A stretch of 64,000 nucleotides of DNA. Origin: Eledone cirrhosa. Lineage: Eukaryota. This document shows positions 62,070 through 62,277 of this stretch, piece after piece. The translations under genes were made by a program, and so were the position numbers. The stretch lies in NCBI GenBank assembly GCA_964016885.1, contig OZ024761.1, positions 25,730,001 through 25,794,000 on the forward strand, written 5' to 3'. The notes below the pieces were generated by a model. It worked only from the letters and a program-made list of their open reading frames with translations. It searched no databases and was not told the DNA's origin. Each line of letters starts with the position of its first letter. The stretch's first letter is position 1.

Positions 62070-62071
<2 letters not shown>

Positions 62072-62277
62072 CAAAGGAATTGTGGTAAGGAACCAGATGG
62101 ACCATAACACACCAGCGTACTCAATACTTAGGGTAGTAGAGTGGGACATAGGAAAAAAGTATGACCCCGACGGCAGAGCTCAAGCCGTTTCGACGGCTAT
62201 TTCTGGACTGAAATAGCAGTCCAGAAATAGCCGTCGAAACGGCTTGATCTCTGCCGTCGGAGTCATACCTTTTCCTA
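62070..62277 (-). mobile_element. Family H copy 8 (longest palindrome, ~62-bp arms, 6-nt loop)
   Basis: ...cgtttcgacggctatttctggactg-aaatag-cagtccagaaatagccgtcgaaacg...; (TA)n flanks. Confidence 0.85.

Follow-up and report, generated by a model that had tools for sequence, protein, structure and literature searches.

Short half-hammerhead hairpins of Eledone cirrhosa as probable stubs of back-to-back insertions of a Penelope-like retroelement

The half-hammerhead hairpins that recur in the window (the whole 64-kb stretch of E. cirrhosa DNA analysed here) are, by their sequence relationships, the smallest of the head-to-head insertions left by a Penelope-like element that codes for a protein with the motifs of the Hydra clade. 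Probably, each arises by back-to-back insertion at a (TA)n target, where each of the two cut strands primes a reverse transcript of one element RNA; the two start points are 80 bases apart, and each copy runs off the 5' end of that RNA. The commoner end point of the copies would be the capped start of transcription at a TTAGT word, in a capped RNA devoid of the 5' half of the ribozyme, and the rarer end point would be the cut made by the ribozyme itself in a read-through RNA; the two cDNA ends would then be joined head to head by end-joining, which would account for the different centre found in each copy. The parentage of the hairpins, the single tail per insertion, the fixed 3' ends, the common subfamily of the two arms, the unrelated 5' ends of the long pairs and the two sharp 5' ends of the short ones are all directly visible in the copies. 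The stubs are likely dead ends and not a unit able to copy itself.

The window, which is 29% GC and abundant in TA repeats within a genome of 3.0 Gb, contains eight hairpin copies, all at the positions named by the original prediction, and no ninth copy was found in its 64 kb. The arm consensus and the three examples of co-variation between arms that accompanied those positions agree with the sequence on inspection, and the example at 62070 includes one mismatch and a 1-base length difference between its arms. In this copy, the longest exact inverted word spans 31 bases, compared with at most 16 in 500 base shuffles. The claim that intact copies encode a substrate half on both strands, scored as a GAAA-stem III core within 2 mismatches on each strand, holds for the copies at 17951, 34870 and 62070 (3 of 8) and fails for the other five, in which one arm is shortened or diverged. 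Moreover, all eight copies carry a one-sided tail of about 80 bases that had been missed and that provides the key to the identity of the family. The layout is the same throughout (8 of 8): from one (TA)n flank, each copy runs through the tail-less arm, the centre and the second arm with its tail of about 80 bases to the other (TA)n flank (Table 1). In full-length copies, the tail sequence continues into the 5' region of the element and its open reading frame. The 8-base insert at the centre of the 62070 copy is likely a templated end-joining scar, given that it repeats the adjacent arm, and other hairpin centres carry similar templated inserts.

Table 1. Coordinates of the 62070 hairpin, its flanks and its sister copies in the window
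Feature	Position	Strand	Basis or remark
(TA)n target, left flank	62043..62069	.	
One-sided tail, about 80 nt, bounded by site 2 and site 1, at which the 3' ends of the element are fixed	62070..62147	-	continues into the element in full-length copies
Hairpin 1, a possible bulged RNA structure lying 5-8 nt past site 2	62120..62141	-	sequence repeat
Tail-side arm; carries the element sense strand between the initiator-like A at 62209 and site 2 at 62148	62148..62209	-	
Hammerhead 3' half of the tail-side arm: GAAA, helix III, GUC, helix I 3' strand	62163..62191	-	aligned with full ribozyme copies; cut predicted between 62169 and 62168
Central 8-base insert copying adjacent arm sequence	62210..62217	.	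seen in sequence
Tail-less arm; carries the element sense strand between the initiator-like A at 62218 and site 2, with (TA)n immediately adjacent	62218..62278	+	
Hammerhead 3' half of the tail-less arm	62236..62264	+	predicted cut after 62258; helix I has one substitution
(TA)n target, right flank, degraded	62279..62296	.	
Sister copy	6619..6811	-	tail arm without GAAA; templated repeats in centre
Sister copy	17749..17903	+	tail arm begins 4 nt before the predicted cut site
Sister copy	17950..18143	+	young; two complete arms
Sister copy	34870..35068	-	both arms present, diverged
Sister copy	41121..41285	-	diverged; tail-less arm short
Sister copy	48829..49014	+	tail arm begins inside helix III
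Sister copy	50282..50480	+	most diverged; like an older subfamily with altered helix II

In the genome, an exact 14-base word of the arm is matched 63,548 times, compared with one match for the control word. Eight insertions lie in the 64-kb window, 12 in 200 kb of neighbouring DNA and 4 in 200 kb of scattered DNA; the copies per base in the window are about six times those of 20 scattered 10-kb samples.

Alignment to full ribozyme copies identifies the hairpin arm as the 3' half of a type I hammerhead, as had been proposed. The stubs of the window do not hold both halves of the core in cis, and the 120 bases upstream of each of the 10 arm matches in the window contain no 5' half of the CCCYUGANRA type; an Rfam scan of the window returned no hammerhead among the matches listed (150 of 433), which are mostly TA-repeat microRNA noise. 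The parent expected to carry the missing CUGANGA strand does exist in the form of longer copies with a 5' half, but the core of this half is UUGANAA (U3-A8), about 45 bases upstream of the 3' strand of helix II, and not the predicted gacccc-CUGANGA-gacggc. The latter pattern has 36 matches in the genome, and those in the 30 loci inspected look like chance words in hairpin centres or flanks. The actual 5' half, ACCCC-YUGANAA-G, has 5,867 genome matches versus 1 for the control.

The full-length parent ribozyme, 94-96 bases long, has the core C3/U3-U4-G5-A6-N7-G8/A8-A9 together with G12-A13-A14 and UH at the cut. Specifically, in 81 full copies (98 regex matches minus 17 short hairpins, with 57 of the 98 coming from loci selected on the core pattern), positions 4, 5, 6, 8 and 9 are almost fixed, position 7 is any of the four bases, and the remaining pair is made of U3 in 63 copies or C3 in 17 and of A8 in all 81, so that the 3-8 pair is broken in the C3-A8 minority. 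Subfamilies that combine C3 with A8, and thus have a broken 3-8 pair, have nonetheless been amplified (L066, L080, L125, L127, L129). Among 21 copies chosen by hand from 58 distinct ones, 95% of the cells of the helices pair, helix I is invariant and three pairs of helix II are changed on both sides in an older subfamily; this covariation rests essentially on one subfamily split, and 53 of 500 shuffles reach its double-change pairs. Of five copies folded, two have the hammerhead as their lowest-energy structure, whereas a sixth copy does not (z -0.58).

The U3-A8 pair is a known active covariation of hammerheads (Perreault et al. 2011, PMC3088659) and, together with opposite-strand pairs, has already been observed in Penelope repeats (Cervera and de la Pena 2014, PMC4209133). 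According to the available text of these two papers, the terminal-repeat hammerheads of Penelope elements share with the present one the U3-A8 covariation, the G10.1-C11.1 pair, a palindromic loop III and the occurrence as opposite-strand pairs 100-700 bases apart. In contrast to the hammerheads described there, helix III is here a full 5-pair helix, which makes a monomer fold possible, and the likely start of transcription lies within a long loop II. A type I hammerhead related to Penelope repeats and dispersed non-coding copies are also features of the animal non-LTR retrozymes, as far as the available text of bioRxiv 10.64898/2026.07.22.740005 describes them; the present family differs from these in that no tandem non-coding unit with a whole hammerhead per unit is found, the source is coding, and the stubs are single and carry half a ribozyme only.

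The connection of the hairpins to a coding element is provided by loci that match the arm and the tail. In 2 of 30 such loci, the sequence continues upstream into a 1.3-kb untranslated region and a GIY-YIG frame. Locus L061 has inverted arms of 1,329 bases that are 98.7% identical and reach the same end point as the short hairpins, and locus L062 is a partial tandem with a period of 3,589 bases. Moreover, 4 of 20 further loci contain an unbroken frame of 720 amino acids that codes for reverse transcriptase (RT) plus, at its C terminus, a GIY-YIG endonuclease within one open reading frame, with DKT (position 117) in place of DKG, YRDD (348), the CxCX5C linker (572), YIG (606), and CxxC (670) and CxH (698) around conserved E and N residues. 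An Atlas search with the protein placed the nearest clusters, which are eukaryotic, at 0.99, and clusters with GIY-YIG or RVT_1 at 0.96-0.97, whereas Pfam (searched with four fragments and with the full 720-aa frame) and a PDB sequence search returned no match for the protein.

DKT, the CxCX5C linker, CxxC and CxH define the Hydra clade in the available text of Craig et al. (2021, PMC8557442), which also describes for this clade the single frame with RT and C-terminal GIY-YIG, the targeting of (TA)n, the canonical hammerhead in the terminal repeat and the inverted 5'-truncated partner with a one-sided tail. In the present family, too, insertion units occur both in tandem and inverted and have a tail at one of their ends, and the tail-less arm is followed directly by (TA)n in 44 of 50 insertions and by degraded TA in most of the other six. 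The clade is further characterised by an endonuclease that has no CCHH motif; by eye, this region of the present protein resembles the Hydra rows of the alignment, and the 720-aa protein is visibly homologous to Hydra-1_Obim from its first Met onward. The two nevertheless belong to different families, with many residue differences by eye, including RWR at the place of the N-terminal RWK motif of the Hydra clade and Hydra-1_Obim. Furthermore, the unit is 3.1-3.6 kb long here versus less than 3 kb in the clade and in Hydra-1_Obim, the tail is about 80 bases versus 30-40, and the ribozyme has a U3-A8 core and a loop II of 31-33 bases versus the canonical CUGAAGA core reported for Hydra-1_Obim in the same available text.

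The first fixed 5' end lies in loop II of the ribozyme. Among the scorable arms, 111 of 122 stop within 30 nt upstream of the 3' strand of helix II and nearly all of these by 19 nt; the wall stands close to the A in a TTAGT or TCAGT word, 12 bases upstream of that strand; the spacing of TTAGT is kept in the older subfamily despite an otherwise rewritten loop II. We take this word to fit the initiator consensus. A G copied from the cap is an established extra base at the ends of other retrotransposons, and a non-parental G, likely such a copy, precedes the initiator A on both arms at 183 loci, compared with 3 loci that have an A on both; about three quarters of 50 G/G centres counted by hand among the matches listed are explicable by templated inserts. 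The bases of single arms devoid of T before the initiator A are 58 G, 31 C and 11 A (100 arms among the matches listed), and those explained by neither the parent nor the partner arm are 22 G, 4 C and 4 A (hand count of 100 listed arms). The commonest base at this position is T (27 of 52), and therefore the start may be spread or A-tailed. Promoters within the terminal repeat are known for Penelope elements from the available text of PMC2377424 and PMC3846280. As judged from the DNA junctions, the TTAGT end point probably represents a capped transcription start, and an RNA beginning there would not include the 5' half of the ribozyme, which would explain the half-hammerhead. Some loci (L012, L024, L141, L207) have up to 13 T before the initiator A compared with three in the parent, likely from non-templated A added to cDNA ends. 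A splicing or trans-splicing origin of the wall is ruled out by the lack of any constant sequence before it.

The second fixed 5' end coincides with the predicted cut of the ribozyme. Both arms start exactly at this position in 170 loci, versus none three bases upstream and one three bases downstream, and 36 and 14 more loci with cut-site starts are found in two other subfamilies; among the matches listed and with intact arms excluded, 41 of 100 arms counted by hand start there. All 10 cut-site loci inspected have the full insertion layout. Within 50 cut-site junctions among the matches listed, 29 have no spacer and could equally have been joined at a CG palindrome of 2 bases, and 19 have a non-parental A or T; the matching control for a CG junction, three bases upstream, gives 0 loci. 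Cut-site ends are the minority class, with hundreds of loci versus tens of thousands. The subfamily with 36 cut-site hairpins has the C3-A8 mismatch in 11 of 14 copies, although its comparison with the 170 loci of the main subfamily is confounded by age and by mixed cores. The exact pile-up at the predicted position constitutes genomic evidence for cutting in vivo, and, on the strength of these junctions, there is good reason to believe that the ribozyme is active in the animal. In a separate case, two arms that both begin at the predicted cut are separated by about 300 bases, each beside unrelated sequence (G000:C1:98560527 and 98560851).

At the opposite end of the element, the tail is bounded by sites 1 and 2, and the stubs have no sequence beyond site 1. 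Full-length copies, and no others, have a hairpin similar to hairpin 1 of Table 1 at 3-6 nt past site 1; hairpin 1 itself displays no compensatory change in 87 tails and is not the minimum-free-energy fold of the stretch. A word similar to this repeat occurs in another Hydra sequence in the available supplement of PMC8557442. The last three bases at both end points, sites 1 and 2, are TAT, and these could base-pair with the target.

The original prediction offered two origins for the likeness of the arms, regeneration of the palindrome at each insertion and homogenisation by conversion, and only the former withstands comparison. In 50 short hairpins, the distance between the arms of one copy is 1.64 versus 4.76 between copies, a difference reached in 0 of 5000 permutations; the private base of the tail arm is present in 0 of 23 partner arms. 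The arms have diverged by 0.044 per site and the tails by 0.037, and the two values are correlated (rho 0.63, 38 copies), so that the arms were identical at the start and were not homogenised later. Among the 50 short hairpins (from 82 tail-bearing insertions, the other 32 having one unscorable arm), both arms belong to the same subfamily in 46 and none has two tails. Similarly, all 20 long pairs, picked from adjacent opposite-strand matches among those listed (100 of 5,867 matches of the 5' half), carry the tail on one arm only. In the 19 pairs measured (L121 was left out as one arm could not be resolved against the reference), the tail arm is longer in 7, the tail-less arm in 9, and the two are equal in 3, with a median difference of 840 bases; these lengths favour two priming events on one RNA. 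Both copies would derive from one RNA molecule, and two RNAs from one locus may also be their source. The centre of every hairpin differs from that of the other copies. In some loci (L149:1786-1936, L170:9279-9431, L198, L150:3908-4120), a segment of helix III has been lost or duplicated between short direct repeats in one arm only, which fits slippage while each arm is copied separately. A self-copying unit was also considered from a systematic T/C asymmetry between arms (L001-L030) and rejected, since this asymmetry spans several subfamilies and follows from selection on the private base of the query.

The published reading of head-to-head Penelope junctions, according to the available text of PMC3846280, is self-priming, whereby one strand folds back and is copied into the second arm. 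Such a fold-back would explain the same subfamily in both arms, the near-symmetric short hairpins and the three symmetric long pairs; however, the copy could neither exceed the length of its template nor gain a tail, yet either arm can be the longer in long pairs, which rules out a simple fold-back, and each arm can carry its own non-parental end base, making this origin quite improbable. A transposon of the MITE or Helentron type, or a self-copying hairpin whose arms are kept alike by gene conversion, is extremely improbable: the hairpins are indeed short, non-coding, numerous and flanked by TA, with inverted arms, but no fixed-length unit copied whole and without an RT parent is found, the sizes form a continuous series up to full RT-coding units, lengths vary and all centres differ, and conversion is contradicted by arms that diverge as fast as the tails and by the private base that partner arms never have in common.

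The short 5' ends could alternatively be positions at which the RT stalls on the structure of the ribozyme, or could result from the later collapse of long inverted insertions by deletion. Perfect inverted repeats are prone to deletion, palindromic words are favoured junctions, and the cut site lies at a helix junction beside a run of G. Nonetheless, the main wall stands in the open loop II and not at the base of a helix, the ends carry a non-parental G, or A or T, and the precision of the cut-site class (170 versus 0 and 1) is at odds with stalling or collapse; moreover, a stall below helix III would retain a C before the cut site, whereas the commonest spacer is A or T, and thus both variants are considered unlikely. 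Beyond the preferred double priming of one RNA, a wider scheme may be envisaged, albeit a doubtful one, in which the promoter fires inside its own ribozyme, the capped RNA is a substrate half that cannot be cut in cis, and the read-through RNA from an upstream copy, which contains the whole ribozyme, either undergoes cleavage or cleaves the capped RNA in trans, so that promoter choice would act as a ribozyme switch and a dimeric RT would copy either end twice, once per target strand, leaving both RNA ends fossilised.

The closest biochemical parallel to double priming is the Poseidon element PAc of the green anole (Frangieh et al. 2024, PMC11167929), for which the available text reports that both target strands are cut and are extended in vitro, that two internal start sites define the tail, that a hammerhead lies near the start of the frame and that the protein is a predicted dimer. 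The PAc ribozyme has a canonical core, its cleavage is dispensable for insertion in vitro and no RNA reads end at its cut site, unlike the present family, in which hundreds of genomic stubs end there; in the same text, the two sites are not connected to the two arms of one insertion. The element class, the insertion layout and the core variant are thus already published, whereas stubs ending at the cut site and a transcription start inside loop II were not found in the literature searched, which was mostly open without subscription, and the available text of PMC13282606 and 10.64898/2026.07.22.740005 contains no description of this hairpin family. The origin of inverted one-tailed Penelope insertions and the role of the hammerhead in vivo are stated as open in the available text of PMC8557442, PMC4209133 and PMC11167929. 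In this respect, the element family offers base-exact predictions of where transcription starts, where the RNA is cut and which two sites serve for priming, all within 141 bases and recorded in tens of thousands of copies. Such hairpins are better annotated as retroelement stubs than as MITEs or microRNA precursors and, if transcribed, would provide the host with a large amount of short double-stranded RNA.

Lastly, other elements are present in the window and beside the loci examined. Seven other CUGANGA...GAAA matches, at 49559 (+), 54934 (+), 51744 (+), 56430 (-), 40910 (-), 25654 (-) and 14697 (-), are likely ends of other Penelope-like families; flanks are common to 25654, 14697 and 56430, and likewise to 49559 and 54934. 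A non-LTR reverse transcriptase frame of 745 amino acids lies close to the inverted insertion (L061:91-3047, +), and fragments of a second, different Penelope-like element, with RT thumb and endonuclease-like frames, are found beside the full-length copy (L062:8337-9425, -). Positions 8025-10042 of the window are about 2 kb of almost pure (TA)n with A interruptions, and positions 26880-26997 hold a tRNA-like sequence (Rfam, 47.7 bits) whose 5' part is repeated in inverted orientation directly before it.
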